Shown here: positions 1-41,195 of the stretch, one piece after another
Layout: the number at the start of each line of letters is the position of its first letter
Numbering within the stretch: the stretch's first letter is position 1
Origin: Candidatus Sumerlaeota bacterium
Lineage (GTDB): Bacteria; Bacillota; SLNR01
NCBI GenBank assembly: GCA_007132905.1
Contig: SLNR01000020.1
Location: 5,859-69,858, forward strand
Length of the DNA: 64,000 bases
Reading direction: 5' to 3'
Made by a program: the position numbers and the translations under genes
The notes under the pieces: generated by a model
The model's input: only the letters and a program-made list of their open reading frames with translations
Database searches by the model: none
What the model was told of the DNA's origin: nothing

Positions 1-1
1 C

Positions 2-487
2 AAACTTCCTTTAGATGTTCATCTTATGATTGAACAACCCGAGCGATATTTTGATGAGTTTATTCAAGCAGGAGCAAGTGCGCTTTCTTTTCATGTAGAA
101 GCTTGCGTACATCTTCATAAGGCCATTCACGAGATAAAGGAAAAAGGCGTGAGAGCAGGTGTAGGTTTAAACCCGGGAACAGCGCTTACTTCGATTGAAT
201 ATATTTTGCCCGATCTTGATTTTGTGGTAGTCATGACGGTTAATCCCGGTTTTGGAGGTCAGGCATTTATCCCTTCGGTACTTTCGAAAATTGAAGAACT
301 GCGGCGTATGATTGATGAGCAAAACCTCCCTACCATCATTAGTGTCGACGGCGGGATAAACGAAAAAACAGCACCGTTGGTAAAAAAGGCCGGAGTGGAT
401 GTCATCGTCGCCGGCTCGGCTGTGTTTGGCCAAAAAGACAGGAAAAAAGCTGTGAATAAACTTCTCGGGAGGAGTCAAAAGGATTGA
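2..487 (+). CDS. rpe: ribulose-phosphate 3-epimerase, C-terminal part (5' end lies upstream of the window)
   Basis: The frame is open from position 2. The translation LDVHLMIEQPERY...VMTVNPGFGGQAFIP...SVDGGIN...AGSAVFG matches Rpe barrel motifs. Confidence 0.85.
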   Translation, partial: KLPLDVHLMIEQPERYFDEFIQAGASALSFHVEACVHLHKAIHEIKEKGVRAGVGLNPGTALTSIEYILPDLDFVVVMTVNPGFGGQAFIPSVLSKIEELRRMIDEQNLPTIISVDGGINEKTAPLVKKAGVDVIVAGSAVFGQKDRKKAVNKLLGRSQKD

Positions 488-686
488 AGGATATTACTGT
501 GAGGCAAACGACAGTTTTTATTTAAAATGAGCCGACCTGAGAGCTTTGCTTCAGGAATGGATAGCTGAAAGAAAGTTTTACTAATATGAAATTTCAAACT
601 CACAATTAGACAATGATCCCGGTTGGCTAAATACCTATGCGAGATACTACATAATTGTCTAGAGCTATTTTATTGGGGGTAGAGAA

Positions 687-1562
687 ATGAAGGATTATTT
701 GGTTCGAGCTATTATCGGTGAGGGGGATGCGAGGGTCCTGGCTGCGCGAACAACTCATCTAGTCGAGGAAGCTAGGGAAAAACATGACACAGCACATACG
801 GTGACGGCTGCCTTAGGCAGGTCATTGAGCGGCGCTGCTATGTTGGGTGCGCAGTTAAAGGAAGAGGGTATTGTTACAATTCGTATAGCAGGAGGCGGCC
901 CTATCAAGGGTATTATTGCCCAAGCAGACCATCAAGGGAATGTAAGAGGGTATGCTATTGAACCTCGTCTTTTTGTCCCTTTAAAAGAGGATGGGAAATT
1001 AGATGTGGGTGGTGCTGTTGGGGATCAAGGGAAACTTTATGTGACTTACGACTTGAAGCTCAAAGAACCTTACACGGGCGTTTCAGAGCTTATAAATGGT
1101 GAAATTGGTGAAGATTTGACATATTACCTCGCCCATTCCGAACAGATCCCCTCCGCAGTTTCTCTGGGTGTTTTAGTAGGACCGGCGGGTGAAGTGCGGG
1201 CGTCAGGTGGATTTATGGTTCAGATGATGCCGAAGGCAGAATCTTCTCTGGTGGAAGAAATAGAGAACCGGATTTCCAAAGCGGCTTTTATTAGTTCACT
1301 TATTGAAGAAGGATTAACGCCGGAAGAAATAACGGAAAAACTGTTTGGTGAATTCAAAGTACAATTTCTTGAAAAAAGGGAACTGAACTACCATTGTGGA
1401 TGTTCCCGGGATCGCATCACATCGATGCTGCTGAGTTTAGGGAAAGAGGAGCTGCAGGACATGCTCGAAGAAGATGGGGGCGCAGAAATACGCTGCCATT
1501 TTTGCGGGGAGAAAAATGTTTTCTCAGAAGAAGAAATAAGGGTATTGTTAAAAGAGTTTTAA
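687..1562 (+). CDS. hslO: Hsp33 redox-regulated chaperonin
   Basis: 291 aa. The C-terminal zinc/redox switch CGCSRDR...CHFCGEK is typical of Hsp33. A GGGGT RBS-like element precedes the ATG. Confidence 0.9.
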   Translation: MKDYLVRAIIGEGDARVLAARTTHLVEEAREKHDTAHTVTAALGRSLSGAAMLGAQLKEEGIVTIRIAGGGPIKGIIAQADHQGNVRGYAIEPRLFVPLKEDGKLDVGGAVGDQGKLYVTYDLKLKEPYTGVSELINGEIGEDLTYYLAHSEQIPSAVSLGVLVGPAGEVRASGGFMVQMMPKAESSLVEEIENRISKAAFISSLIEEGLTPEEITEKLFGEFKVQFLEKRELNYHCGCSRDRITSMLLSLGKEELQDMLEEDGGAEIRCHFCGEKNVFSEEEIRVLLKEF

Positions 1563-1639
1563 GTTTGGTTTGCAGCAAAGTGGAAATGAAAAAAAGGATC
1601 TGGTTTTATCCAAATCCTCAATACTCAGTCGTGAATAGA

Positions 1640-1840
1640 TTAGATGGCGCGTTCAACTTTTCCTCCGCGAAGGCAGCGAGTGCAAACTGTGATGCGCTTC
1701 GGTGCACCGTCAACCATTACTTTGACTTTTTGGATGTTGGGGGCCCAGGTCCTTTTGGTTTTAATGTTACTGTGACTTACTTTGTGGCCACTCTGGCGTT
1801 TTTTGTCGCATATTTGACATTTGGCTTTCAATTGCTCCAC
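1640..1840 (-). CDS. rpmB: 50S ribosomal protein L28 (zinc-ribbon C+ form)
   Basis: 66 aa. It has the SGHKVSHSNIKTKRTWAPNIQKV core of L28 and two CxxC pairs (CQIC, CTRC). Confidence 0.9.
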   Translation of the reverse strand: MEQLKAKCQICDKKRQSGHKVSHSNIKTKRTWAPNIQKVKVMVDGAPKRITVCTRCLRGGKVERAI

Positions 1841-1899
1841 CTCCCTGAAAAAAGGCTTTTCTAGTTATCATTAGAGATTATTGCAAGCTGCACTCCTGT

Positions 1900-1929
1900 A
1901 TTTTACCATACTTTTGCAAAATGGTGCAA
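1900..1929 (-). promoter_or_regulatory. putative sigmaA promoter of rpmB
   Basis: The minus strand reads TTGCAC-18 nt-TAAAAT with a TG extension (TGgTAAAAT), about 60 nt upstream of the rpmB start. Confidence 0.4.
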
Positions 1930-2068
1930 GATATCTTTTTGCGGACCCATAGGAGTGTCCGACTTTTCAAAAAGCAGCAGGAAATAGAGTCCGTTGGGCG
2001 AATGTGCATTTAGAAGGAAGGCATGGCTTGCAGGTGATCGTGTTTTTTCCGTTTGAGGGGGCACTTTT

Positions 2069-2431
2069 ATGAGCAAAGAAGTGGTAAATGAATTTGGAAA
2101 AATTGAAATATCAGAAGAAGTTCTGGCTACTATTGCCGGAGTAGCAGCTGTTGAATGCTACGGTATTGTCGGAATGGCATCCAAAAAATTAAAAGACGGT
2201 TTAGTGGAGCTTTTAGGGCGGGAGAATTTGAGCCGCGGGGTTAAGGTTTCGATCGAGGATGATAAAGTTGTGATTAACTTAAATATCATTGTCGGATACG
2301 GAGTAAGAATCAGCGAAGTGGCTTCCAATGTCCGCGATAAGGTTAAATACATGGTGGAAACAATGAGCGGCCTGCCGGTAAGCAGGGTGAATATTCATGT
2401 GCGCGGCGTGAAGGTAAGTAATGGAAAGTAA
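2069..2431 (+). CDS. Asp23/Gls24 family alkaline-shock protein (YloU-like)
   Basis: 120 aa. The G(K)IEISEEVLATIAG...ECYGIVGM pattern is typical of Asp23. The gene sits directly upstream of a DAK2 gene, as in yloU-yloV. Confidence 0.85.
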   Translation: MSKEVVNEFGKIEISEEVLATIAGVAAVECYGIVGMASKKLKDGLVELLGRENLSRGVKVSIEDDKVVINLNIIVGYGVRISEVASNVRDKVKYMVETMSGLPVSRVNIHVRGVKVSNGK

Positions 2432-4121
2432 GGGGCTGAATCAGGGGATGGAGTATATTAATGGGCCTGTCTTGAAAGAAATGATATCAGCTGGCGCAAA
2501 TAGGCTTGATTATCATAAGAAATTGGTCGACGAGCTGAATGTGTTTCCTGTTCCGGATGGCGACACGGGTACCAATATGTCGCTGACCATTTTTGCTGCG
2601 GTAAAGGAGATGGAAAAAGTTCGTTCCGACTCCCTCCACGCCGTAGCGGGGGCACTGTCTTCAGGGTCATTAATGGGAGCTAGGGGCAATTCGGGCGTTA
2701 TTTTGTCTCAAATCTTTCGAGGCTTTACTAAAAGCATTGGAGGCAAAAAACAGATCGGCAGTCAAGAATTCAGTTTAGCCCTACAAGAAGGGGCCAACAC
2801 TGCCTACCGTGCTGTGATGAAACCGGTGGAAGGAACGATTTTGACGGTGGCGCGCGAGATAGCCAAGGCTGCCGAAAACGCATCGAAAGAAACAAAGAGT
2901 ATTGAAGTCATCCTAGAAAAAGCACTCGAAAAAGGACGTTTGACATTAGAAAAGACCCCGGAAATGCTTCCGGTGCTTAAGCAGGCCGGGGTGGTCGATG
3001 CTGGTGGGAAAGGGCTTATTTATATTCTTGAGGGAATGGCATCGACAGTGATGGAACAAGAAATACCTGCGGTCCTCGAGGAGGATCGTGTGGATGTTGT
3101 TCACGAGGTGATTGATGACGAGGAGAGTTTAAAAAAAGAGCTTATATACCCTTACTGCACTGAGCTGCTGCTTTACAGTTCTAACGGACAGCTGCTTTCA
3201 GAAACAAAGATTCGCAAAGAGCTAGATCGCTTAGGTGACTCCATGCTGGTGGTGGGATCTAGTGACATGATCAAAATACACATCCATACAAACGAACCAG
3301 GTGAAGTACTCCTTCATTGCGGAAAAATGGGTGAAATGAGAGATATTAAGATCGACAACATGAATTATCAGCACAGAACATCAATCCTCGAAGAAGAACA
3401 GGACCTGCCGTCCAAAGAAGAAGAAGGAATTAGTGAGGATGCTGCAGGTGATGGACAAATAAAAAAAGAATATGGATTAGTGGCTGTTGCTGCCGGAGAA
3501 GGTTTGGCGGAAGTTTTCAAAAGTTTAGGAGTGGATGAAGTCGTGACCGGAGGACAAACCATGAATCCTAGCACCGAGGAATTAGCTTCGGCTGCAAGAA
3601 ATATTTCCTCCGAGAAAGTTGTGATTCTGCCGAATAACAGCAACATAATTTTAGCAGCCGAGCAGGTGAAAGATATCCTGGACAGACCTGTTTTTGTCAT
3701 CCCTACCTCCTCAATTCCGGAAGGGATCGCGGCTCTTTTGGTTTTTGATCCTGCGGGGGAACCTGAAAAGAACCAAGAGAACATGCTGGCAGCCTTTCAA
3801 AATACAAAAACAGGCGAAGTAACTTATGCCGTTCGTGATTCAGCGTTTAATGGGATCGAACTCCAAGAAGGAGACATATTGGGGATTTCGAATCGAGAAA
3901 TCGTAGTTTCTGGCAAAGATCCGGGCCAGGTAGTTCTTGATCTTCTGGGAACCATTGTGAAAGAGGAAGATAGCTTAATTACCCTTTATTATGGCGAAGA
4001 TATTGAAGAAGAAGCGGCGGATCAGTTGCAGGAGAAGGTGGAACAGAGTTACCCGGAAGTAGATGTGGAAGTGTATCAAGGGGGGCAGCCTCTGTATTAT
4101 TATTTCATTTCCGTAGAATAG
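2421..4121 (+). CDS. fakA: DAK2-domain protein YloV, the fatty acid kinase FakA family
   Basis: 566 aa. It has the LNVFPVPDGDTGTNM DAK2 phosphate-binding motif. It overlaps the Asp23 gene stop by 11 nt. Confidence 0.8.
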   Translation: MESKGLNQGMEYINGPVLKEMISAGANRLDYHKKLVDELNVFPVPDGDTGTNMSLTIFAAVKEMEKVRSDSLHAVAGALSSGSLMGARGNSGVILSQIFRGFTKSIGGKKQIGSQEFSLALQEGANTAYRAVMKPVEGTILTVAREIAKAAENASKETKSIEVILEKALEKGRLTLEKTPEMLPVLKQAGVVDAGGKGLIYILEGMASTVMEQEIPAVLEEDRVDVVHEVIDDEESLKKELIYPYCTELLLYSSNGQLLSETKIRKELDRLGDSMLVVGSSDMIKIHIHTNEPGEVLLHCGKMGEMRDIKIDNMNYQHRTSILEEEQDLPSKEEEGISEDAAGDGQIKKEYGLVAVAAGEGLAEVFKSLGVDEVVTGGQTMNPSTEELASAARNISSEKVVILPNNSNIILAAEQVKDILDRPVFVIPTSSIPEGIAALLVFDPAGEPEKNQENMLAAFQNTKTGEVTYAVRDSAFNGIELQEGDILGISNREIVVSGKDPGQVVLDLLGTIVKEEDSLITLYYGEDIEEEAADQLQEKVEQSYPEVDVEVYQGGQPLYYYFISVE

Positions 4122-4140
4122 CGTAAGGAGGGGTTTGTGA

Positions 4141-4533
4141 ATGAAAAGACTAGTTAAAGATGAGTCAGTGTGTGTTGAATGTCATCGATGCGAGGAGGCT
4201 TGTGCAGGAACATATTTTAAAACGAAAGATATTTCCAAAGCTCGCCTTCATGTAAAAAGAAACGAAGGCGAGAAGCCGGACATCACTATATGCACCCAAT
4301 GCGGGAAATGCATGGAAGTTTGTCCTGTCAAAGCTTTGGGCCGAAATAAGAACGGGGTCGTTATGGTTGATCAAAAAAAATGTGTGGGTTGTTTTATGTG
4401 TGTAGCGGCCTGTCCCCTTGATGCCATGATGTATAGCTCAGATGAGACAGAACCCTATAAATGCATTGCCTGCGGGATCTGTACCAAACAGTGTCCCACA
4501 GGAGCTGTAACCCTTCAGGAGGTGGAAGAATAA
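4141..4533 (+). CDS. polyferredoxin with four [4Fe-4S] cluster motifs
   Basis: 130 aa with four Cys motifs: CVECHRCEEAC, CTQCGKCMEVCP, CVGCFMCVAACP and CIACGICTKQCP. Its stop codon abuts the aor ATG. Confidence 0.85.
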   Translation: MKRLVKDESVCVECHRCEEACAGTYFKTKDISKARLHVKRNEGEKPDITICTQCGKCMEVCPVKALGRNKNGVVMVDQKKCVGCFMCVAACPLDAMMYSSDETEPYKCIACGICTKQCPTGAVTLQEVEE

Positions 4534-6678
4534 ATGGACAAAGTGCTTACTTTGAATCAACTTAAAAAGTATCGCTACGAGAAAAAACCTATTGAGCGCG
4601 GCTACAATGACAGAACACTATATGTAAATGTATCTGATCAGCGGATTGAAGAAAAAAAAGTAAGTGAAGAAATGAAAGAGAAGTTTACCGGAGGAAAAGG
4701 ATTTGGGCTAAAATTGTTGTGGGATGCGACCAAACCCGAAACCAAGTGGAATGATCCCGAAAATGAGATTATTATCTCCCCGGGACCGGTGGCAGGGATT
4801 ACTCAATATCCGGGTTCAGGGAAATCCTTGGTGGTTTCGCTGTCTCCGGCGACTAATGTTCCCATTGACAGCAATGTGGGGGGATATTTTGGTCCCTATA
4901 TGAAGTTCTCTGGATTTGATGCCTTGGAACTTCAGGGGAAAGCGGAAAAAGAAGTGGTGGTTTACATTGACGGCAATGAAGGCACCGTATCAATCGATGA
5001 GATTGAGATCGATACGGATGACGCTCATCTTATCTCAGAAAAACTAACAGAACACTACGCAAAAAATGAGGATGATAAGAGACATATCTCGGTAGTTACG
5101 ACCGGATCGGCCGCCGAGCATATTTATATGGGGATTCTAAACTTCAGCTTTTACGATGTGCGCCGCAAAGTTCCCCGCATGAAACAAGCGGGACGCGGGG
5201 GAATCGGTTCGGTTTTGGCTGATAAGAATGTCAAGGCGTTGGTCGTTAAGTTTGAAGGCACCAAGGGAGATTTAAATAATAGCTATGATTACGATAAGGT
5301 GTCTCGAACGGGTATTAAAATCCATCGCGAGATTAACAAATTAGACGACAAGCAGTTTCGTATGCGCCAAGTGGGAACCGCCAATATTATCGACACCATG
5401 GACCAATACGACCTGCTGCCGGTAATGAATTTCCAATATGGATCCCACCCTGATGTTAAAAAGATTTACAGTAATGTTTTTCGGGACAACTACTTAACAC
5501 AGGGAATACCCGATGGTTGCTGGTACGGTTGCTCTCTGGCCTGCGCCAAAACAGCCGATCACTTTGAGATCAAAACAGGGCCTTATAAAGGTTCTAAGGT
5601 AACAGTGGATGGTCCGGAATACGAAACAGCCGCGGGGGTAGGTTCGAATCTTGGCATATTTGATCCCCAATACGTACTCGAATGCAACTTCTACTGCGAT
5701 ACCTATGGGATTGATACCATATCCTTTGGAACAGCCGGTGCTTTTGCTATGGAATGTTACGAACGGGGTTTGATTACCAAAGAGCATACCGGCGGTCTTG
5801 AACTGAATTTTGGCAGCGCGGTGGTAGCTCTTGAACTTCTTCATCAAATGTCAAGAGGCGAAGGCTTTGGCGTCCTTGTCGGAAAAGGTGTAAGAAGAAT
5901 GAAAAAGCATTTTGCGGAGCATTTCGGGGCAGATCCTAAGCTCATGCAGGATATCGGGATGGAATTAAAAGGCTTGGAATACTCTGAGTATATGCCCAAA
6001 GAATCGCTAGCCCAGCAGGGAGGTTATGCTTTGGCGAATAAAGGGCCGCAGCACGATGAGGCATGGCTGATATTTATGGACTTGGTGAACAATCAGCTGC
6101 CTTCTTTCGAAGACAAAGCAGAAGCCCTCCACTATTTCCCAATTTTCCGCACCTGGTTCGGACTAGCTGGTTTTTGCAAGCTTCCCTGGAATGACATCAT
6201 GCCGGAAAACAATAAGTACCAGGAAGAGCCGGCTAAAATACCCGAGCATGTAGAAAACTATGTGAATCTGTTTACTGCCGTAACGGGCAAAGAGATCGAT
6301 AACAAAGAACTGATGCTTCAGTCCGAGCGGGTATACAACTTCCAAAGAGTGTTTAATTTGCGGCAGGGATACGGAAAACGTGAAGACGACATGCCTCCTT
6401 ACCGATCACTGGGTCCGGTTACAGTAGAAGAATACGAGTCAAGGACCGAACGGTATGATGGGCAGCTCAAAGAACTTTTGGATATTGATCCGGAAGGAAT
6501 GTCAACAGAGGAGAAAATGGCTAAGGTCCGAGAGTACCGGGAAAAGCAGTATGAGACGCTAGTTGACGCTGTATACAAACGTCGCGGCTGGAATGAAGAA
6601 GGAGTCCCGACGGCAGAGCATCTACAAGAAATTGGCATGGATCTTCCTGAAGTTTTGGCCGTGGTGAATAAGAAATGA
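4534..6678 (+). CDS. aor: aldehyde:ferredoxin oxidoreductase family protein (tungsten/molybdenum bis-pterin enzyme), long form
   Basis: 714 aa. It has the AOR N-domain (GGKGFG, SPGPVAG), the motifs DGPEYET and DTISFG, and a Cys cluster DGCWYGCSLAC. Confidence 0.9.
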   Translation: MDKVLTLNQLKKYRYEKKPIERGYNDRTLYVNVSDQRIEEKKVSEEMKEKFTGGKGFGLKLLWDATKPETKWNDPENEIIISPGPVAGITQYPGSGKSLVVSLSPATNVPIDSNVGGYFGPYMKFSGFDALELQGKAEKEVVVYIDGNEGTVSIDEIEIDTDDAHLISEKLTEHYAKNEDDKRHISVVTTGSAAEHIYMGILNFSFYDVRRKVPRMKQAGRGGIGSVLADKNVKALVVKFEGTKGDLNNSYDYDKVSRTGIKIHREINKLDDKQFRMRQVGTANIIDTMDQYDLLPVMNFQYGSHPDVKKIYSNVFRDNYLTQGIPDGCWYGCSLACAKTADHFEIKTGPYKGSKVTVDGPEYETAAGVGSNLGIFDPQYVLECNFYCDTYGIDTISFGTAGAFAMECYERGLITKEHTGGLELNFGSAVVALELLHQMSRGEGFGVLVGKGVRRMKKHFAEHFGADPKLMQDIGMELKGLEYSEYMPKESLAQQGGYALANKGPQHDEAWLIFMDLVNNQLPSFEDKAEALHYFPIFRTWFGLAGFCKLPWNDIMPENNKYQEEPAKIPEHVENYVNLFTAVTGKEIDNKELMLQSERVYNFQRVFNLRQGYGKREDDMPPYRSLGPVTVEEYESRTERYDGQLKELLDIDPEGMSTEEKMAKVREYREKQYETLVDAVYKRRGWNEEGVPTAEHLQEIGMDLPEVLAVVNKK

Positions 6679-6863
6679 TCACGGTAAACAATCGTCCGTT
6701 GGAGCACTTTGACGGAATGACGATTGAGGATATTTTGGAAATGAAAAATTATACCTATGAGGGTCTCATTATTCGAGTAAACGGGGCCCTCGTAGAAGAC
6801 CGTGATTATCAAGTCCAAGATGGCGATGATGTGAAAGTTATCCATATTTGCCAAGGAGGATGA
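6675..6863 (+). CDS. ThiS/MoaD-like small sulfur-carrier protein
   Basis: 62 aa ending in GG. It has the ThiS-like pattern (ITVNN...VNGALV...DGDDVKVIH..GG). Its ATG overlaps the aor TGA (ATGA). Confidence 0.65.
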   Translation: MITVNNRPLEHFDGMTIEDILEMKNYTYEGLIIRVNGALVEDRDYQVQDGDDVKVIHICQGG

Positions 6864-6895
6864 ATTTATCAGGAGGAGTGTGGGCGATGGTTAAA

Positions 6896-7735
6896 ATCGT
6901 TACTGACAGCACGGCCGATCTACCTAAAGATTTAGTTGATAAATATGAAATCCATGTCATTCCTTTAAATCTCTTTTTCGGCGAAGAAACTTTCAAAGAT
7001 GGGATTGATCTTTCTCCCGAAGCTTTTATTCAAAAACTAAAAGCTTCTGACAAGCTGCCAACAACTTCCCAGCCTTCGCCGGCTGATTTTGCCGAAATGT
7101 ATAAGGAGCTAATTGAAGACGGGAGCGAGGTTGTGTCAATTCACATTTCTTCAGAATTAAGCGGGACATACCAATCGGCTGTTTTAGGGCGCGAGATGCT
7201 TGATAATCCAGAAAAGGTGTTTGTCATGGACAGTCTTTCTGCCACGGTGGGATTGGGCCTTATGGCTATTGAGGCAGCCAAAGCAGCCGGCGAAGGAAAG
7301 CCGGGTGAGGCAGTCAAAGAGCTGGTGGAGAAAATGATTAAAGGAAGCCATTTATTTCTGTCCATAGAGACCTTGGAGTATCTTCAAAAAGGCGGGCGGA
7401 TTGGCCGGGCACAAGGGATGCTGGGTTCACTTTTGAATATTAAGCCGATCCTTTACCTTGATGAAAAGGGCGTAGTAAGTCCCGCGGAAAAAGTGCGCGG
7501 TCACAACAAAGCCATGAAGCGAATGGTGGATATTGGGCTTGAAAAAGTGGAGGATCCGCAAAAGGTAATTTTCGGCGTAGCCCATATTGGCTATGATAAA
7601 GGGGCTGAGGTTGTTGTGAACAAAGCCAAAGAGAAATATCCGGATGCGCAGTACATTGTGTATGAGGGAGGACCGGTCATTGGTACCCACGTCGGGCCGA
7701 AAACAGTAGGTTTTATCGTACAGAATATGAATTAG
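6896..7735 (+). CDS. DegV family fatty-acid-binding protein (FakB-like)
   Basis: The N-terminus MVKIVTDSTADLP and the motif LSGTYQSA are typical of DegV. An AGGAGG lies 10 nt upstream of ATG 6896. The track start at 6848 looks like an upstream over-extension. Confidence 0.85.
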   Translation: MVTDSTADLPKDLVDKYEIHVIPLNLFFGEETFKDGIDLSPEAFIQKLKASDKLPTTSQPSPADFAEMYKELIEDGSEVVSIHISSELSGTYQSAVLGREMLDNPEKVFVMDSLSATVGLGLMAIEAAKAAGEGKPGEAVKELVEKMIKGSHLFLSIETLEYLQKGGRIGRAQGMLGSLLNIKPILYLDEKGVVSPAEKVRGHNKAMKRMVDIGLEKVEDPQKVIFGVAHIGYDKGAEVVVNKAKEKYPDAQYIVYEGGPVIGTHVGPKTVGFIVQNMN

Positions 7736-7767
7736 TCGGTATGTGGGTAAAAGGTTTATTTATAAGA

Positions 7768-7795
7768 GAAAGGGCCTCCGACCGGAGGCCCTTTA
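7768..7795. terminator. bidirectional rho-independent terminator between degV and the chemoreceptor gene
   Basis: A GGGCCTC/GAGGCCC stem is flanked by an A-tract on one side and a T-tract on the other, between convergent genes. Confidence 0.6.
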
Positions 7796-7856
7796 TGCGT
7801 TTTCTTTGCGCCGGGGAGAGATTAAATGCTGCCGTGTTTTAATGATACAGTATGAG

Positions 7857-9389
7857 CTATAAAGAGAGATCACCACCTAAAACTCCGACAGTACTCCCGT
7901 TTTGTTTTACCGGAACAGAAACGGTGATGCATGGTTTGAAGTCGACAATGGAAACGTATGGTTCGGATTGATATGTTTGGCCGGCAATAGCTTCTCTAAA
8001 CCATGGCCGGTAAGTGTTCGCTGAATCCTTCTTCTGAGTTACATCATCAACCGTGACTGAATCAAAAGTATTCCCCACGGCAAACCCGTCACGGTCCATT
8101 ATATATAAGATACTGAAGGTGTCTTGAGCGGCAATTTCTTCTTTGAGTATCTTTGAAGTTTTGTCTCGGTCAAGTTTGCTTATATCAGGGTGTTGTGCAA
8201 GTTTTTGGAGCCACTCTTTGGCATTATTTAACGCATTGTCAAGGCTTTCATTTGTTTTGGAATAACTTCCGAATTCCTCGATTACCTCCATTTGGGTGGA
8301 GGAAATCTCTGATAATTCAGTTGAAGCCTCCGAGATGGATTGCATCCCGGCTGACTGCTGCTGTACGGAAGCAGCGATGGTACTGATTTTGTCGGCCGTA
8401 CTTTCCACGTTATCAATAATTCTGTTGGTAAGCGATATCACATTTTGACTGTCTTTTGCGGCCGACAAAGTAGAGTCTTTAATCTTTGTAAATACTTCTT
8501 TTGTACGATGAATAAAATCAAGGCCTTTGCCAGCTTCTGATAAGCTTTTATTCATAGCAGATACAGTTTCTTTAAGTCCTTCGTTTATGTTCTCAATGAG
8601 TGTTCCGATTTGGTTTGCCTGTTGATCGCTTTGTTCGGCGAGTTTTCTGACCTCATCGGCGACCACTGCGAAACCTTTTCCACTATCACCAGCGTGGGCA
8701 GCTTCAATCGTTGCGTTAAGAGCCAGAAAATGAGTCTCCTGGGAAATATTGGTGATAATGTCCGCTATTTTTCGAATCTCATCGGATTGTTGATTAAGTT
8801 GTTCTAATACCTCCGCGGAGGTTTCGATCGCGTTGTTGATTTCTTCCATCTGTTCTACGGAATAAGAGATTTCTCGATCGGCCGTATTTACAAGCCCTTG
8901 GTCGTTTGTTTCGGAATTGGAAATCTTGCCGATGGATTCTTTCAAAGAGGCCAAGGCCGACGATACGCTTTTGACGTCTGTTAGCTGTTGGTCAGTAGAA
9001 TAGGTTACTTTTTCTGAGGAAGATGCGATTTCCTCCAGTGCCTGAGCGGCTTGATGTATAATTTCTTCTAGCTGTTTGGCGGTGCTGATTGTTTTTTCTG
9101 CGGTAACTTGGCTTCGGCCGGTAAGTTTTTGAATCTTATCATAGAGGGAAAAATAAGCTTTTGAGATTCTTTTTTTCCGTCTTTTGCCTTTGTCGCCCGA
9201 CAAAGCAAGCAAGTTGCCTTGGAGTAGTTCAGCAATTAAGTTTTCGTTTTCTTCACGATATCTGCCCCATAACAACCAAACAAAGCTGCCGGCAGCAAAG
9301 CCGCAAGCTGCGCTCAAAAAAGCATTTGCCGACCACCAATACACGCCTGAATGAACCAAAACAGTAAAAACAATAGATAAAAATCCCAA
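7857..9389 (-). CDS. methyl-accepting chemotaxis protein with a C-terminal Cache-like domain
   Basis: 510 aa with two N-terminal TM helices and the MCP signalling hairpin ([36 protein letters not shown]). The start is TTG, with AGGAGGGG 8 nt upstream. Confidence 0.9.
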
Positions 9390-9463
9390 ATAAAACCCCT
9401 CCTAAGAAGATGTATAAAATCCGGATGATTAAAAAGACGCAGCAGACAATGTCCATAAGGGGT

Positions 9464-9490
9464 TTATCGACAGAGATGAGGAATCCTTTA
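9464..9490 (-). promoter_or_regulatory. putative sigmaD (sigma-28) type promoter of the chemoreceptor gene
   Basis: The minus strand reads TAAA-15 nt-GTCGATAA, against the Bacillus sigmaD consensus TAAA-N15-GCCGATAT. It lies about 75 nt upstream of the start codon. Confidence 0.45.
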
Positions 9491-9642
9491 ATAATAAGCA
9501 GGGCTCTTTGAGGGATCTGATAATGAAGATGAAAGGGAGTTTGATAATAAATTTCAGTAAAAGGGATAGAATAACAGCATCATGACAGGATGACGATGAG
9601 GCTTTGGCGAATCTTACGGTGGTTGTTGAGAGGTGATTTGAA

Positions 9643-11958
9643 TTGGCGAAAGAAGAAATGGCCCGTTCATTTTTTCATGCATTCAGCAGGATGGGCGACA
9701 AGTCCCGAAAAGAAAAAAGGTGCCAATATGCTGCAGAAGCAAAGAAGATCCTTTTCGAGTTGAAGAAAAGCGGTTATCTATGCCGTTTGGACTATCAACG
9801 CTGGGATGAATACTTAGAAATAATAAGCAGTGATGGAGAAAATGCTGATCACATCGCCAACTTAAAAAAAGAAGTAGCTTACTGGCAGTCCGATGATTTT
9901 GCAAGTTCGGTTGTCAAAGCGAAGGGGGTTGGAGTTTCCCGGGCCGGGCAATTATCTAAGCTGGGCATTGAGACCGTATATGATCTATTCACCCATTATC
10001 CTAAACGCTACGAGGATCGAAGTAAAATAAGACCTATGGATCAAGTAACAGCAGGTGAATATGTGACGGTCGCCGGAACGGTCAAAGCAGTGAAAGAGAA
10101 AAGGGTTCGTAAGAATCTTTTCATTTTGGAGGCAGAGATTTATGATGAGCAAGGATGGCTGAAAGCCGTCTGGTTTAATCAAATGCACATCAAAAAACAG
10201 CTTAAAACGGGAAAACGCATTTTCCTAAGTGGGAAGGTAAACAAAAACGCCAGGAAACTGCAAATACAAAACCCCGATTATGAACTCGAAGAGGCAGAGA
10301 GTTTCGTTCATACCGGTCAGATCGTACCTGTCTACCCGGCGACAGAAAAAGTAGAACAAAAACGTCTGCGGAGAATCATCAAAGACAATTTTGACATTTG
10401 GCTTGATCACTGGAAGGACCCGCTGCCCGCCGAGATACGAAAGAAGTATCAACTTATGGAAGTGCAGAAAGCGATGAAAAATATCCATTTTCCAGAAAGC
10501 AAAGATGACTATAAAGAGGCGCGCCGCAGACTAATTTTTGAGGAACTGCTAATTCTCCAACTAGGGGTAAATCAAAATCGTTATCTTGAAAATCACCAGA
10601 AATCCGGCAGGGCCCATCTAAAAAATTGTGAAAGGACACAAAAGCTTTTGGGTTCTCTTTCTTTTTCTTTGACTAAAGATCAGAAAAAAGCGTCAGAAGA
10701 GATATGGGCGGACATGGAAAGGCCGCGGCGAATGAACCGCCTTCTTCAAGGAGATGTTGGTTCCGGAAAAACGATTGTGGCGGTCTTGGCTTTAACTAAA
10801 ACGGTGGACAGCGGTTGTCAAGGGGTTTTTATGGCTCCAACGGAAGTGCTGGCAGAACAGCATTTTCACAAAACAAAGCCCTTGTTTGAAAAAGCTGGCA
10901 TTCGAAGCTTTCTGTTAACCGGCAGTTTAAGTGAAAAAGAAAAGCAGTGTATCTACGACAAGATAAAACAGAGAAAAGCGGATATTGTCATAGGAACACA
11001 TGCTTTGTTTCAGGAAAAAGTGTCCTTTGATGACCTGGGACTTGCTGTAATCGACGAGCAGCATCGCTTTGGGGTGCAGCAGCGAAATGCTCTTCGTGAC
11101 AAAGGGCTCAAAGCTGACATATTGGTTATGTCCGCTACTCCGATCCCTAGAACTTTGGCGATGACAGCGTATGGTGATCTAGACATCACTACGATAAAGC
11201 AAATGCCAGCAGGCAGAAAGCCTATAAAAACGTATAGTGTAACTTCGGATCTTAGGCCGAGAGTGCACGCATTTATAAGAAAAGTGGTACAGCAGGGACA
11301 GCAGGTGTATGTTGTCTGTCCCTTGATAGAAGGCTCAGATCATTTAAACGTTCAGGCGGCCAATGATTTGGCGGCGACACTCAAAGAGGACATTTTCCCG
11401 GACCTTGCTGTGGGCCTTCTGCACGGGAAGATGATTAATAAAGTAAAAGAAAAGACAATGCAGTCTTTCAATGAAGGGAGCATAGATATTTTGGTTGCGA
11501 CGACCGTGGTTGAAGTGGGGGTGGACGTGGCGAATGCTTCTTTAATTGTGATAGAAGGAGCAGAGAGGTTTGGATTGGCTCAGCTTCATCAGCTGCGGGG
11601 CAGAGTGGGGAGAGGGGAAAAGACTTCATATTGTGTTTTGATCAATGAAGGATCGTCCAATGAAGAGGCATCCGAACGCATGAAAATAATGTGTGCCACT
11701 CAAAATGGTTTTCTGCTGGCTGAAAAAGATCTTGTATTAAGAGGCCCGGGGGAGTATTTGGGAACGAAACAGCATGGGCTGCCGGATTTAAAATTGGCCG
11801 ATCTTTTAAAACATCAAAAGGTTTTGCAGATAGCTAGAAAAGAAGCGGTTGTCTTGTTGAAAAAAGATCCGGACCTGTCTTTTCCCGAGCATAGCCAACT
11901 AGCGCGAGAGGTAAACAGAAAAATGACTCCGGCCAATTTTTCCCCGTTATCTGTTTAA
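9643..11958 (+). CDS. recG: ATP-dependent DNA helicase RecG (start codon uncertain; apparent N-terminal extension)
   Basis: Wedge-region motif THYPKRYEDR, helicase motifs GDVGSGKT, DEQHRFG and SATPIPRT, and the C-terminal RGPGEYLGTKQHG. Confidence 0.9.
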   Translation: MAKEEMARSFFHAFSRMGDKSRKEKRCQYAAEAKKILFELKKSGYLCRLDYQRWDEYLEIISSDGENADHIANLKKEVAYWQSDDFASSVVKAKGVGVSRAGQLSKLGIETVYDLFTHYPKRYEDRSKIRPMDQVTAGEYVTVAGTVKAVKEKRVRKNLFILEAEIYDEQGWLKAVWFNQMHIKKQLKTGKRIFLSGKVNKNARKLQIQNPDYELEEAESFVHTGQIVPVYPATEKVEQKRLRRIIKDNFDIWLDHWKDPLPAEIRKKYQLMEVQKAMKNIHFPESKDDYKEARRRLIFEELLILQLGVNQNRYLENHQKSGRAHLKNCERTQKLLGSLSFSLTKDQKKASEEIWADMERPRRMNRLLQGDVGSGKTIVAVLALTKTVDSGCQGVFMAPTEVLAEQHFHKTKPLFEKAGIRSFLLTGSLSEKEKQCIYDKIKQRKADIVIGTHALFQEKVSFDDLGLAVIDEQHRFGVQQRNALRDKGLKADILVMSATPIPRTLAMTAYGDLDITTIKQMPAGRKPIKTYSVTSDLRPRVHAFIRKVVQQGQQVYVVCPLIEGSDHLNVQAANDLAATLKEDIFPDLAVGLLHGKMINKVKEKTMQSFNEGSIDILVATTVVEVGVDVANASLIVIEGAERFGLAQLHQLRGRVGRGEKTSYCVLINEGSSNEEASERMKIMCATQNGFLLAEKDLVLRGPGEYLGTKQHGLPDLKLADLLKHQKVLQIARKEAVVLLKKDPDLSFPEHSQLAREVNRKMTPANFSPLSV

Positions 11959-12042
11959 GATATAAGTTTTGTCAGAATAGGAAATGAGAATAAATATATG
12001 CTATAATAAATTGACTTCATTTTCCAAAAAAGAGGTGTCGGT

Positions 12043-31729: not shown

Positions 31730-33091
31730 TTGGAGAAAAAACACAGGGAGCTTCTAAAAAAGCTGGTGCCTTCTCTAAAGGATGTGCCGTCTGATTCAGA
31801 TTATTGGCTGAAGAGATCCGAAAAGGCTTTGGGAAAGAGCACTCATGATCGAGAGGTGTATCCCGTACTTGATCCCAATAAAGGAGAAGGGCTGCGCTTG
31901 TATGATCTGGAAGGCAATGAATATATCGATGTGACCGCCGGCGTAGCGGTAAAGGCGCTCGGCACTAGAAATCCCGACCTTGTGGCGTTTGAAAAGGAAA
32001 TTTCTCATGTGACCGAAGAATATTCCGGTCAAGATTTTGACTATATTAACCAAACTGTTTTATCTGAGCGCCTCACGGACATTACCCCTAATAGCAAAGA
32101 AAAAGAAAAGCAGTGTTTTTTTACAACCAGCGGGGCAAGAGCTATTGAAAATGCAGTGAAATCCGCCATGGATACCACTCGTAAACATAGATTTGTGGGG
32201 TTTCGACCCGCGTTTCACGGAAGAACGGGGCTGGCTCTAACACTAACTGCATCTAAAGCTGCTCACCGAGAGTATTTCCCCGCCGCTTTCCCCGTTGTAA
32301 GGGCTCCGTATGCTTATTGTTATCGCTGTCCTTATAATCTTAAACCTGAAGATTGCGAGCAGAAAGCTTATTGCGTCGAGCAGATCTACGACATGGTCAG
32401 TATGGAAGGAACCGATATCGCCGGGATTGTCTTTGAATCTATCTGCGGGGAGGGCGGAATTATCGTTCCGCCAAAATCCTTCGCGAAGGGTTTGCGAAAA
32501 CTGGCTGATGACCTTGACGCCGTTTTGATCGCCGATGAAATACAAGCCGGATTGGGAAGATCAGGGAAATGGTGGGCCTATGAACATGCCGGGATTGAAG
32601 TGGACACGGTTTGCGCTGCCAAGGCTCTAGGTGCGGGTTGGCCAATGGGTGTTACGATCGGCGATAAACCGATGTTTACGGCCGATGGAAGAAATTCTGA
32701 GACTTTCTCAGCAGAACCTAGGATGGCTTTGTTGTCTTTGTTTGTGCTCCATTACATTGAAAAGCACAACTTGATCGAGAATGCAGAAAAAATGGGAGCT
32801 TATATGCTCAAAAGACTCAATGAGATGAAAGAGAAATTCAAGTGTGTTGGAGATGCACGGGGACTTGGTTTGATGCTGGGCATCGAGATTGTTGAGGATA
32901 AAAAATCAAAGAAAAGGGATCCGGAGAAGCGGGATGCTGTCTTGAAAAATGCAGTTCAAAAGCAAAGGCTGCTAATCCTTCCTTCCGGAAAGAATACACT
33001 TCGGCTCCTTCCGCCACTGACAATCACCATGGAGGAAGCAGAAGATGCTTGCAATCGATTAGAAAAGGCTCTGGAAGAAACGAGCGTTTAA
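31730..33091 (+). CDS. class-III PLP-dependent aminotransferase-fold enzyme (substrate unknown)
   Basis: 453 aa with a TTG start. Motifs are TSGARAIENAVK, DEIQAGLGRSGKWWAYEH and the PLP-lysine context CAAKALGAGWPMG. Confidence 0.85.
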   Translation: MEKKHRELLKKLVPSLKDVPSDSDYWLKRSEKALGKSTHDREVYPVLDPNKGEGLRLYDLEGNEYIDVTAGVAVKALGTRNPDLVAFEKEISHVTEEYSGQDFDYINQTVLSERLTDITPNSKEKEKQCFFTTSGARAIENAVKSAMDTTRKHRFVGFRPAFHGRTGLALTLTASKAAHREYFPAAFPVVRAPYAYCYRCPYNLKPEDCEQKAYCVEQIYDMVSMEGTDIAGIVFESICGEGGIIVPPKSFAKGLRKLADDLDAVLIADEIQAGLGRSGKWWAYEHAGIEVDTVCAAKALGAGWPMGVTIGDKPMFTADGRNSETFSAEPRMALLSLFVLHYIEKHNLIENAEKMGAYMLKRLNEMKEKFKCVGDARGLGLMLGIEIVEDKKSKKRDPEKRDAVLKNAVQKQRLLILPSGKNTLRLLPPLTITMEEAEDACNRLEKALEETSV

Positions 33092-33092
33092 G

Positions 33093-33137
33093 AATTGAAA
33101 GAGCGCTCCTCTTTTTTGGAGGAGCGCTCTTTCAATT
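33093..33137. repeat. 19-bp perfect inverted repeat (strong hairpin or terminator) after the aminotransferase gene
   Basis: AATTGAAAGAGCGCTCCTC-ttttttg-GAGGAGCGCTCTTTCAATT, read directly from the sequence. Confidence 0.7.
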
Positions 33138-33207
33138 CATTCTTGTGCGCGGAGTCTTGTTCTGGTATTCTACAAACTGAGTAGGACAAAGGAATGGAGA
33201 GGTGTTT

Positions 33208-34314
33208 ATGAAGATCGGCGAGCATAAAGCGATGGCGTTATGTAAACATTTTGAGATACCGACAGTCAACCACTATCTGATTGAAACCAGCTCAATCCCT
33301 GTGGATGACTGGGCACCCATGAAGATGCCGGTGGCTTTTCAAAAGATTTCTTTACAAGAAAAGAGCCCCACCCAAAGGGTTGAAGAAGAAGAAGATTTGA
33401 TTTTTTTTGTGGAGAATTTTTTTCAATCACGAGAAAAAGGGGATAAAATTTTCATAAAGGAGCTGCCGATTTTTAAAGAAAAAATCTTTGTAGACATGGG
33501 CATCAATTATCAAGCGGGGAGTGTTTTTTTAAGGATTGTACCTTGCAAAGGAGCTCTTGTAAAGGAAATTGAAATGGAAATGATGAGCGAGCAAGAAATA
33601 AGCCAACATCAGTTTTTTGAATTTGTCCGTAGCGGCGGGTTTCAGGGACATGTTCTAAATCAAATGGGCCGGCTGCTTTTTCGAATGACTCACATGTTTT
33701 TTCAGGCGGATTTAACAGAAGTCAAGCTGTCTCCCGTCCACATGACCCTGGAAGGGGATGTTTTGGTGGGCGGTGTTAAAATGGAGATGGATGATGCGGC
33801 TTTAAGCAGACAGGAGAAAGTCCTTGACTTTTATCGGGGAGATCAAGAAAACGATCTGCTGAGAGAATTTCGTCAGGCAAGTCTTGTCTATAGAGCAATT
33901 GACCTGCAAGGAGAGGTCGGCGTCATTGCCAGCGGAATCGGACTCACTTTGTCCTCGTTGGATTATGTGGTGCAGGCAGGTTTGTCGGCGTGCGGAAGTC
34001 TTGTTTTGGGCGGGGGCATTCTTGAAGAGAAAATGGCTTCCGGGGTTAGATTAATGAAAAAGATCAAGGGGATACAAGGAATATTGATTAATGTTTTTGG
34101 CGGGGCTAACAGCTGTGAGATTATGGCGAAAGGGATTGCCACCGGTTTGGAAGAAGAGCCGCAAGATATCCCTATTATTGTAAAAATGACCGGTCATGAC
34201 CAGGAAGAGGGATGGCGAGTGCTTGAAGAGGCGGGACTGTTTTTGGTTCGCAGTCCGTCTAGTGAACTTGCTGTGGAAAGCCTGAAGAAATTGACTTTAG
34301 CAGAAAGGAAGTAA
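33208..34314 (+). CDS. succinyl-CoA synthetase beta-subunit-like protein with a degenerate ATP-grasp site
   Basis: By-eye collinearity with SucC: IGEHKAMALCKHFEIP vs LHEYQAKQLFARYGLP; ILINVFGG vs VLVNIFGG; IIVKMTGHDQEEG vs VVVRLEGNNAELG. The GGRGKAGGV loop is absent. Confidence 0.6.
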   Translation: MKIGEHKAMALCKHFEIPTVNHYLIETSSIPVDDWAPMKMPVAFQKISLQEKSPTQRVEEEEDLIFFVENFFQSREKGDKIFIKELPIFKEKIFVDMGINYQAGSVFLRIVPCKGALVKEIEMEMMSEQEISQHQFFEFVRSGGFQGHVLNQMGRLLFRMTHMFFQADLTEVKLSPVHMTLEGDVLVGGVKMEMDDAALSRQEKVLDFYRGDQENDLLREFRQASLVYRAIDLQGEVGVIASGIGLTLSSLDYVVQAGLSACGSLVLGGGILEEKMASGVRLMKKIKGIQGILINVFGGANSCEIMAKGIATGLEEEPQDIPIIVKMTGHDQEEGWRVLEEAGLFLVRSPSSELAVESLKKLTLAERK

Positions 34315-34318
34315 AAAG

Positions 34319-35206
34319 ATGGCCGTCTTAATTGACAGTAATACAAAGATTATGGTGCAGGGTATAACAGGGGCACAAGGAGCTTATCATTCACAGCTGA
34401 TGAATCTGTATACAAAAGACCGCGTTGTGGGCGGGGTCAGTCCAGGCAGAGGCGGGATGAACATTTCCGGTATTCCTGTTTATGATACGATCTCGGCTCT
34501 GAAAAAAGAAGCCCAAGTGGATGCTTCTTTAGTCATGGTGCCTCACCAGCATGTCCTTGATGCTGTCTGGGAGGCTGTGGACAACGAGATTGAGCTGGTC
34601 GTCATTGTAGCAGAAAATGTTCCTCTGCATGATACCATACGAATGAAGTCGCTCTCTCGGGGTAGCAGGACAAAGATAATCGGGCCCAATACCATGGGCA
34701 TTATTAGTCCAGGGAAAAGCAAAATCGGTGTGATGCCGGAAAAGCTCTATAAAGAAGGGAAAGTGGGCATTCTTTCTCTTTTGGGCACGCTGAATTATGA
34801 AGCGGCTTGGAATTTGAGTGAAAACGGAATCGGACAATCCACCTGCCTGGCCATCGGAGGCGACAAGCTGACAGGAATCAGCATTACAGAGGGGCTAGAG
34901 TATTATCGGCTGGATGAACGAACCGAACAAGTCATCCTCATAGGCGAAACACCTTATCTTGATATTGAAGGGATCTATCATTATTTAAGCAGTGCTTCCT
35001 ACCATAAACCGATCTATGCCTTTTTGGCAGGACAGTCGGCTTCCTTGTATTACGGAAAAGATTTCTTTTCTCGGTTAGGTTGTGGCGAGCCATATCCAAT
35101 CGACATTAAAGAGGCGAGAAAAAAACTAGAAGCCTGCCGAGTAAGGGTTATGGACTCCATGACAGAACTTATAGATGGGATCAAAATGGCTCATCATGGA
35201 AAATAA
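34319..35206 (+). CDS. succinyl-CoA synthetase alpha-subunit-like protein lacking the phosphohistidine motif
   Basis: MAVLIDSNTKIMVQGITGAQG, GGVSPGRGG and GQSTCLAIGGD match SucD. The MGHAGA position reads FFSRLGCG. Confidence 0.7.
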   Translation: MAVLIDSNTKIMVQGITGAQGAYHSQLMNLYTKDRVVGGVSPGRGGMNISGIPVYDTISALKKEAQVDASLVMVPHQHVLDAVWEAVDNEIELVVIVAENVPLHDTIRMKSLSRGSRTKIIGPNTMGIISPGKSKIGVMPEKLYKEGKVGILSLLGTLNYEAAWNLSENGIGQSTCLAIGGDKLTGISITEGLEYYRLDERTEQVILIGETPYLDIEGIYHYLSSASYHKPIYAFLAGQSASLYYGKDFFSRLGCGEPYPIDIKEARKKLEACRVRVMDSMTELIDGIKMAHHGK

Positions 35207-35240
35207 AGAGCCTGAATATTTACGATAAAAAGCTAAAGAA

Positions 35241-40808: not shown

Positions 40809-41195
40809 ATGCTTGACAAGGTGGTCAGGTTGAACCAATTATACGACTGGTATAGCCCGCTGTTGACAGATAAACAGCGGGATGTTTTTGAGCTTTATTA
40901 CCACCATAATTTATCACTGGCAGAAATCGCCGAAAATCATGGAATAAGTCGTTCAGCAGTAAGAGATGCTTTGCTGCGTACCGAGAAGAGGTTGGAGACA
41001 TTTGAAAATAAACTTGGTCTTGCCGAAAAGCAAGCCAAGTCAGAAGAGATTATTGAAAACATGCAGCAAAACAGGCTTTTGCTTGGTCCGGAGGAACTAG
41101 ATCGAAAAACACAAGAAATTATTCATAAGCTTCAAGAAATGCTAAATGTTGTCAATGATGTCTGGACTTCTGAAGAAAACAGGAGGGGATCGTAA
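40809..41195 (+). CDS. ylxM: YlxM/p13-like putative DNA-binding protein (UPF0122)
   Basis: LYDWYSPLLTDKQRDVFELYYHHNLSLAEIAENHGISRSAVRDAL is the YlxM signature. The gene lies upstream of ffh. Confidence 0.85.
   Translation: MLDKVVRLNQLYDWYSPLLTDKQRDVFELYYHHNLSLAEIAENHGISRSAVRDALLRTEKRLETFENKLGLAEKQAKSEEIIENMQQNRLLLGPEELDRKTQEIIHKLQEMLNVVNDVWTSEENRRGS

Follow-up and report, generated by a model that had tools for sequence, protein, structure and literature searches.

We examined a 64,000-nucleotide stretch of contig SLNR01000020.1 (assembly GCA_007132905.1; hereafter the window), assigned to a ‘Candidatus Sumerlaeota’ bacterium, in which a putative aldehyde:ferredoxin oxidoreductase (AOR) gene and two companions lie among genes of the fatty acid kinase (Fak) system. 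Six open reading frames (ORFs), all tightly packed on the forward strand and identified from the ORF list and domain profiles, make up the string asp23-fakA-fdx-AOR-thiS-degV (Table 1). An earlier note on this DNA had described the same six genes, and the ORF coordinates together with Pfam and NCBIfam profiles bear out both the string and the domains it named. The note had also taken fdx-AOR-thiS-degV to be inserted, and had proposed that co-transcription would suggest a metabolic coupling, aldehyde oxidation feeding fatty acid activation being one option and the reverse, reductive route another. Here we find that only the first three of these genes are inserted, and we consider it probable that they are an unrelated AOR cassette riding on the fak operon transcript, without a metabolic link to Fak.

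Table 1. Features of the fak-AOR locus (positions in the window) and the spans of four related AOR contexts in other genomes (positions in the named locus).
Feature	Position	Strand	Basis
rpmB (ribosomal protein L28)	1640-1840	-	PF00830 82 bits; TIGR00009 72.5 bits
asp23/yloU-like, first operon gene	2069-2431	+	PF03780 126 bits
fakA/yloV, predicted DAK2-domain fatty acid kinase catalytic subunit	2421-4121	+	Dak2 + FakA-like_M + FakA-like_C
Inserted cassette, 2765 nt, fakA stop to degV start	4122-6886		Insertion-free relatives
fdx (worS/aorA-like), predicted polyferredoxin, 130 aa	4141-4533	+	16 Cys in four CxxCxxCxxxC motifs
AOR (worL), predicted AOR-family tungstopterin oxidoreductase, 714 aa	4534-6678	+	AFOR_N + AFOR_C
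thiS, predicted ThiS/MoaD-like beta-grasp protein, 62 aa, C-terminal Gly-Gly	6675-6863	+	PF02597; TIGR01683
degV/fakB-type, predicted fatty-acid-binding protein	6887-7735	+	TIGR00762 336 bits vs cutoff 99.7
Intrinsic-terminator-like hairpin closing the operon	7769-7794	+	11-pair stem, 7 G-C
Clade-7 AOR context, L037	4285-10330
Clade-7 AOR context, L056	3107-9365
Clade-7 AOR context, L058	2977-9154
Clade-7 AOR context, L059	1354-9160

The junctions between these genes are close throughout. The fdx stop codon TAA abuts the AOR start codon ATG at 4533/4534, and AOR and thiS overlap by ATGA at 6675-6678, both read directly in the DNA and both as previously described. The 11-nt overlap of asp23 and fakA that the note had placed at 2421-2431 exists if fakA starts at ATG 2421; ATG 2448 is an equally plausible start, because homologues align from residue 6-10, and would leave a 16-nt gap instead. 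The spacer between fakA and fdx is 19 nt long and holds an AAGGAGG ribosome-binding site. The gap ahead of degV had been given as 32 nt and is actually 23 nt (6864-6886): a ribosome-binding site, AGGAGG at 6871-6876, serves ATG 6887, and TTG 6848, the start in the mechanical ORF listing, is not likely to be the degV start. The predicted FakA scores 653 bits against TIGR03599 (YloV; cutoff 396) and 546 bits against the staphylococcal FakA_VfrB equivalog, under its cutoff of 975, which would make it a member at the subfamily rather than the equivalog level. The predicted DegV similarly scores 191 bits against the FakB1 equivalog, below its cutoff of 350, and is assigned to the FakB/DegV type by its DegV/EDD domain and its pairing with FakA.

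The catalytic protein of the cassette has both domains of the AOR family at scores far over their cutoffs (PF02730, AFOR_N, 169 bits; PF01314, AFOR_C, 349 bits) and aligns with the solved structures of PfAOR (1aor, 1.7e-59) and AorB (8c0z_A, 8.6e-52). In the 1aor alignment, all four [4Fe-4S] ligands of PfAOR (C288, C291, C295 and C494) fall on cysteines of the window protein and the D-x-x-G-x-D pterin motif is kept, with the first three cluster cysteines spaced as CxxxCxxxC (residues ~329-337) versus CxxCxxxC in PfAOR. Four second-shell residues (Thr243, Glu313, Tyr427 and His448 in PfAOR numbering) form a signature of aldehyde-oxidising members that is absent in the YdhV and BamB clades (PMC12096430, PMC13328260). 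All four are kept here, as the T in GTA, the E in GPEYE, the Y in SEYMP and the H in PQHDE. Judged from its sequence, the protein is most simply an aldehyde-oxidising type of the AOR/WOR family, predicted to hold a tungsten-bis-pyranopterin. At 714 aa it is ~110 aa longer than PfAOR (605 aa), with its N-terminus extended and additional insertions around residues 555-575 and 628-675. Separately, at the second pterin motif (D489-x-x-G-L-C in PfAOR), the Asp aligns in the pairwise comparison with a Gly of the window protein (residues ~545-551).

The two small proteins of the cassette can be readily connected to this enzyme. The fdx product aligns over its full length with AorA (8c0z_C, 5.5e-15) and with the Fe-S subunit of an AOR complex (9mqx_E), and is a predicted electron-transfer subunit of the AOR (WorS); its N-terminus, MKRLVKDESVC, has no twin-arginine motif. 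The ThiS-like protein scores above cutoff with both profiles (PF02597, 37.9 bits versus 22.5; TIGR01683, 40.6 versus 37.45) and ends in ...CQGG, and we predict that it is a sulfur carrier for tungstopterin synthesis. Neither a WorN/AorC-type FAD subunit, nor a HydABC-like module, nor membrane or Tat features, which mark Classes III-V, were found, the neighbours being only fak genes, rpmB, a methyl-accepting chemotaxis protein (MCP) gene and recG. The fdx-AOR pair is thus a predicted Class II WOR, composed of WorL (the AOR) and WorS. Three proteins (A0A1M6K4E4, A0A140KZK7 and A0A1M6PSK0), each tagged 7 in Table_1 of PMC13328260, share 69-71% identity with the AOR across 98% or more of its length, and by this proxy of pairwise identities we tentatively place it in WOR clade 7.

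Other identities were considered for this enzyme and rejected. It is not taken as a GOR or an ASOR, its close homologues being tagged clade 7 and not 20 or 40; PfWOR5/ASOR (6x6u) aligns at 1.9e-44, over residues 23-489 only. A YdhV-type molybdenum enzyme, which is the best NCBIfam match and the source of automatic UniProt names, was set aside because the scores are far under cutoff (NF007354, 112 bits versus 868 for the AOR; 65 versus 213 for the equivalent ferredoxin profile) and the second-shell residues are present. BamB (4z3w) aligns at only 3.5e-31.

The same three genes travel together elsewhere. Among 33 distant loci whose AORs are 56-66% identical, from Chloroflexota, Bacteroidota, Synergistota, Acidobacteriota, archaea and others, fdx lies directly upstream of the AOR gene in 13 and thiS lies nearby in 14. 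The fdx-AOR-thiS unit is a known, portable three-gene cassette, in which the thiS-like gene and the ferredoxin are standard AOR accessories and not parts of the Fak pathway (PMC1779556, PMC13328260).

The order asp23-fakA-fdx-AOR-thiS-degV-recG is exactly repeated in three further genomes (L034, L036 and L041; L034 is the same sequence as L040 and L036 the same contig as L039, each pair being counted once). Identities to the window proteins in these genomes are 82% for Asp23, 59-62% for FakA, 72-73% for Fdx, 76-79% for AOR, 60-73% for ThiS, 60-63% for DegV and 45-51% for RecG. Gene order, tight spacing and terminator position are beyond chance, because all recur in three genomes with flanking proteins just 45-64% identical. 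The recurrence in other genomes that the earlier note had named as a check extends to three further genomes and is confined to one lineage, with no AOR gene near any of ~24 FakA loci outside that lineage. A metagenome scan with FakA added the same organism (L064) and distant insertion-free loci, and nothing else.

Insertion-free relatives set the boundaries of the insert. In two of them (L060 and L062; FakA ~51% and DegV 51-54% identical) fakA and degV are 16-17 nt apart, and in a Paenibacillus (L063; DegV 48% identical) they are 53 nt apart, in all three cases within the order PrkC-RsgA-Rpe-(Hsp33)-rpmB-(asp23)-fakA-degV-recG. The rpmB gene, oriented divergently from the operon and found at this same place in L034, L060, L062 and L063, is the conserved upstream edge of this syntenic slot. 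Outside the lineage, the DegV proteins nearest to that of the window (48-54% identical) are encoded directly after fakA, and more distant Clostridia have asp23-fakA-recG, in some with degV after recG. By this comparison the fakA-degV adjacency appears ancestral, with degV not part of the insert. Because the rpmB...recG slot of the insertion-free relatives holds fakA-degV, only fdx-AOR-thiS counts as inserted; the claim of insertion thus stands for these three genes and falls for degV, an ancestral neighbour of fakA. The insert has no compositional anomaly (GC 0.43-0.47, as in the flanks), and no mobile-element genes or repeats were noted at its borders. Across the embedded loci the fakA-fdx spacer measures 19-23 nt, and within the spacers just the ribosome-binding sites are conserved. 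The embedding is confined to one sparsely sampled lineage and is consistent with a single insertion that was vertically inherited.

Several features argue that the six genes are read together. Their intergenic gaps, at 0-23 nt, are too short to house intergenic promoters or terminators, and the hairpin that closes the operon has a folding energy of -22.8 kcal/mol (z = -4.3 versus shuffled sequence). Weaker terminator-like matches on the forward strand at 2040, 3717 and 4079 (z = -0.2 to -0.9) are no better than shuffled sequence, so the note's statement that the first terminator comes only after degV holds for convincing terminators. Hairpins also lie just 3' of degV in L034 (11209-11230, followed by a seven-T run) and in L036 (11202-11221), and the best forward-strand terminator directly follows degV in the window and in both of these genomes alike. 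Contigs assembled from RNA add continuity in the sister genome L034: one (X12, 10136-10467) links the 3' end of the AOR gene, by way of thiS, to degV, and others from a second set (X11) bridge thiS-degV (10254-10525) and asp23-fakA (5867-6099) and stop at the terminator hairpin (11055-11231). Because of the short gaps, the absence of a convincing internal terminator, the conserved terminator after degV and these bridging RNA contigs, it is very probable that all six genes are transcribed as a single unit. For the co-transcription that the note had asked to see as RNA across the gene junctions, asp23-fakA and AOR-thiS-degV are bridged and fakA-fdx is the junction left without a contig. In a soda-lake sediment metatranscriptome (X7), from a sample shared with one of the DNA runs, contigs lie on rpmB, fakA, AOR and degV of the window's own organism; AOR, degV and fakA are thus transcribed in situ in soda-lake sediment.

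Regulatory elements particular to the cassette were sought and not seen. There is no match to a sigma-54 promoter, of the kind the relatives have, around 4141, and matches across the whole window stay at the level expected by chance; positions 1-12000 have no Rfam match to a riboswitch or other RNA element (e.g. the Moco motif); and sigma-70-like sites in the window, L034 and L036 are at or below shuffle expectation.

If the AOR served the Fak pathway, one might look for Fak genes beside it in other genomes. Outside the lineage we compared 37 distinct loci of the AOR clade (39 fetched). FakA, DegV or Asp23 was not found within 8 kb of any of the 33 distant AOR loci, and no Fak genes were found near the closer Clostridial loci (L037/L038, L056/L057, L058 and L059; AORs 69-74% identical). 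What these closer loci carry instead is a different set of partners. A five-gene oxidoreductase set (Fer2_4, Pyr_redox_2, Fer4, SO_alpha_A3/BFD and DAO) occurs in L037, L056 and L058, preceded in L037 and L056 by a sigma-54 activator; such an activator is found in three of the four other clade-7 contexts (L037, L056 and L059; none in L058). The best solved relative of the DAO subunit is 1y56_B, at 300 bits versus 154 for the next match. We take 1y56 to be the L-proline dehydrogenase complex of Pyrococcus horikoshii. In Geosporobacter ferrireducens (L059) the partners are a glycyl-radical, HypD-type trans-4-hydroxy-L-proline dehydratase (6vxc, 1172 versus 572 bits) and its activase, with a sigma-54 activator and an NSS transporter just upstream. 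In G. subterraneus (the A0A1M6K4E4 neighbourhood; PMC13328260, Table_1) proA and proB directly follow thiS, and an NSS transporter accompanies this locus as well as L058. These recurrent clade-7 partners converge on 1-pyrroline-5-carboxylate (P5C)/glutamate-5-semialdehyde, not on lipids, and in Clostridia the WorS-WorL(-ThiS) genes repeatedly come after those of the P5C-forming enzymes. The convergence suggests that the clade ordinarily works in the breakdown of amino acids, and clade 7 may be a glutamate-5-semialdehyde:ferredoxin oxidoreductase. We found no literature pairing a hydroxyproline dehydratase with an AOR.

Taken together, these observations are probably best explained by an AOR cassette that has no metabolic connection to Fak and is carried on its transcript. 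The cassette would have inserted once into a 16-17-nt fakA-degV spacer, in an ancestor shared by a small lineage of Bacillota-like anaerobes that has been found in the sediment of soda lakes, in anaerobic digesters and in a JGI sample of culture type (TOLCLC). It has no sigma-54 activator. Transcription would start at the housekeeping promoter of asp23-fakA, read through the cassette and end after degV, with every gene retaining a ribosome-binding site of its own. By homology, WorL would oxidise an aldehyde to the acid at a tungsten-bis-pyranopterin site, electrons would pass from its [4Fe-4S] cluster through the four clusters of WorS to ferredoxin, and the ThiS/MoaD-like protein would give the sulfur for the pterin dithiolene. 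FakA and DegV would meanwhile go on phosphorylating fatty acids to feed lipid synthesis of the PlsX/PlsY type, without involvement of the AOR.

A number of observations weigh against this reading. The comparison of loci took in only ~8 kb of flank per locus. Clade 7 comprises enzymes of Class I as well as Class II; none of its members is characterised, and it is abundant in the microbiomes of the gut (PMC13328260). The exact position of the cassette was kept while its flanks diverged to 45-62% identity and neighbours were gained (in the window an MCP gene, in L036 additional ORFs), a persistence compatible both with selection for linkage and with simple inheritance. No RNA contig crosses the fakA-fdx junction, either in L034 or in the window's metatranscriptome, and for this reason read-through from the fak promoter is only inferred. 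In X7, moreover, the AOR gene has five contigs (depth 3.9-8.8), fakA one (depth 2.4) and degV two, an unevenness that could reflect an internal promoter or differential RNA stability; these are very shallow assembled contigs in which DNA carry-over is possible, so that depth is a poor measure of expression.

The uneven coverage bears most directly on the possibility of a separate promoter, lying within the 3' portion of fakA and driving most transcription of the cassette, alone or together with degV; the location would then be incidental and expression uncoupled from asp23-fakA. X7 coverage is fuller and higher on the AOR gene, where it lies within 4810-6735, than on fakA; asp23, fdx and thiS are uncovered, the highest RNA contig depth is on rpmB, and none of the X7 contigs on the window's own organism crosses a gene junction. 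Weak promoter-like hexamers also occur inside the L034 fakA (7432-7459 and 7533-7562). On the other hand, no promoter-like site was detected on the forward strand at 2069-5252 of the window, the promoter-like matches in the window, L034 and L036 do not exceed shuffle expectation, and in the 19-23-nt fakA-fdx spacer the ribosome-binding site alone is conserved. Contig depth is also a poor guide to expression, and we regard a separate promoter as unlikely.

A functional coupling, such as the earlier note had proposed, would have the AOR turn long-chain aldehydes into fatty acids that DegV binds and FakA phosphorylates for phospholipids, or would have the AOR reduce fatty acids to aldehydes, the insertion having been retained since co-expression was advantageous. 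Such a scheme draws on the tight packing and on the RNA continuity over AOR-thiS-degV in the sister genome; on the retention of the arrangement in four genomes whose RecG proteins are just 45-51% identical; on the many aliphatic aldehydes taken by characterised AOR-family enzymes, the aldehyde activity of PfASOR being highest with hexanal (PMC13328260); and on plsX and the fab genes in the window, which show that the organism uses the acyl-phosphate route. Against this, none of the other AOR-clade loci sampled carries Fak genes, none of the other FakA loci sampled carries an AOR gene, and the repeated partners of the clade are proline dehydrogenase-like, hydroxyproline dehydratase and proA/proB genes. 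The embedded AORs are 71-74% identical to the enzymes found with those partners, with no lineage-specific change at conserved sites: compared with 114 clade relatives, they differ at only three positions that are at least 90% conserved elsewhere, and the changes (E to D, L to M and D to N) are conservative and each also present in some other members. We thus found no neofunctionalisation or active-site change specific to the embedded AORs. Nor did we find literature linking FakA, DegV and aldehydes, and one insertion event accounts for the whole pattern. Co-transcription is therefore not evidence of coupling here, the cassette's partners elsewhere being P5C-forming and not lipid genes, and we judge a coupling of either kind quite improbable. 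Its more specific form, a ferredoxin-linked salvage of fatty aldehydes (e.g. from turnover of ether/plasmalogen-type lipids) that feeds DegV, then FakA and then phospholipid, is very unlikely.

That the embedded form came first in a wider group, with the fakA-degV adjacency arising by precise loss of the cassette, is highly improbable. In its favour, close outgroups were sampled only in the form of L060 and L062, so that polarity rests on few genomes. Against it, fakA-degV-recG also occurs in the distant Paenibacillus, Clostridia generally have asp23-fakA-recG (whether or not a degV gene follows), exact loss would be needed in several lineages, and the AORs of the lineage are 71-74% identical to Clostridial cassette AORs, far above FakA (40-52%), DegV (at most 48-54%) and RecG compared with outside genomes, an identity difference that fits a conserved enzyme or later acquisition alike.

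The wider setting of the locus is a classic Bacillota core region. Upstream lie rpe, hslO and rpmB; downstream lie recG, rsmD and coaD, then ackA, yceD and plsX, and further on fabH, fabD, fabG, fabF, rnc, smc and ftsY, followed by ylxM, ffh, rimM and trmD. Window DNA is found in soda-lake and alkaline-sediment metagenomes. The nearest Ffh sequences (window ffh, 41195-42538) are 61-64% identical and mostly from Bacillota, and the sister metagenome-assembled genomes L039, L040 and L041, which are also labelled ‘Candidatus Sumerlaeota’, have a Bacillota-like gene order (prkC-rsgA-rpe-hslO-rpmB-asp23-fakA...recG and plsX-fab-rnc-smc-ftsY). The label ‘Candidatus Sumerlaeota’ may be wrong.

Three further observations concern this region. 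The MCP gene, on the reverse strand at 7857-9389 between degV and recG, is present in the window only and not in L034, L036 or L041, and its layout is unusual, with the signalling domain (182-317) ahead of a C-terminal PDC-type sensor domain (424-510). Between ftsY and ylxM-ffh, which are usually adjacent, the interval 31730-36860 holds a class-III aminotransferase, two succinyl-CoA-synthetase-like subunits (both under equivalog cutoffs) and an amidohydrolase; this four-gene block may be a further insertion, specific to the lineage, within the core region. Finally, in two soda-lake DNA runs (X1 and X2) single contigs match the window only from 2551 on or only as far as 7613, the remainder of each contig being dissimilar sequence, and the same contig breaks appear in both runs at 118, 10720 and 11084. 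These breaks could reflect strain variants, recombination borders around fakA...degV or assembly-graph artefacts.

The ‘embedded module’ is thus best understood as a cofactor-plus-enzyme cassette of a portable kind, one that came to lie within a housekeeping operon, and the case illustrates that operon membership should not be equated with pathway membership unless it is independently recurrent. Sigma-54-regulated in three of its four other contexts, the cassette here sits on a probably constitutive housekeeping transcript and has been kept there over long divergence. Nothing we found links the chemistries of AOR and Fak, and a route from fatty aldehyde to acyl-phosphate is unsupported. If fatty-aldehyde salvage were nonetheless true, it would give a clade-7 tungsten oxidoreductase its first physiological role and the Fak pathway a new input. 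The occurrence of clade 7 beside P5C-producing enzymes provides a testable substrate hypothesis, glutamate-5-semialdehyde, for a clade that is reported to be among the most abundant tungsten-enzyme clades in gut microbiomes (PMC13328260).

The cassette can be compared with several known systems. Iyer, Burroughs & Aravind (2006, PMC1779556) described MoaD genes strictly adjoining genes for an AOR and a 4Fe-4S ferredoxin, in a probably mobile cluster that occurs sporadically in distant phyla and was predicted to supply the tungsten cofactor. The window and the loci we fetched show the same pattern; the window neighbourhood differs in having no MoeB, MoaE or pyridine-disulfide oxidoreductase, and in that the cluster is embedded in another operon and does not stand alone. 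Class II WORs, which make up 16% of the family, consist of WorL and a WorS with four clusters and use ferredoxin as carrier, PfASOR (clade 40) and CbGOR (clade 20) being the sole characterised members (Putumbaka et al., 2026, PMC13328260). The window pair resembles them in its AFOR_N/AFOR_C large subunit beside a four-[4Fe-4S] small subunit, with no FAD, HydABC-like or membrane subunit nearby, while the close homologues of its AOR sit in clade 7. The AorAB enzyme of Aromatoleum aromaticum (8c0z; PMC6365974) shows the same order of polyferredoxin, catalytic subunit and MoaD-like maturation gene(s), but belongs to a different clade and has AorC, the FAD-containing, NAD-reducing subunit that the window lacks; filament formation and NAD coupling are therefore not expected here. 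The E. coli pair YdhV/YdhY, a molybdenum AOR-family protein with a ferredoxin-like partner, gives the best NCBIfam matches for the window AOR and ferredoxin, and one close AOR homologue is automatically named ‘putative oxidoreductase YdhV’ in UniProt, yet the four second-shell residues, which are missing from the YdhV and BamB clades, are all kept in the window AOR. As for the surroundings, the flanks, the gene order and the fakA-degV pairing all match the Bacillota rpmB-asp23-fakA-(degV)-recG slot as seen in L060, L062 and the Paenibacillus L063, and it is in the window lineage only that fakA and degV are split by 2765 nt of unrelated redox genes.

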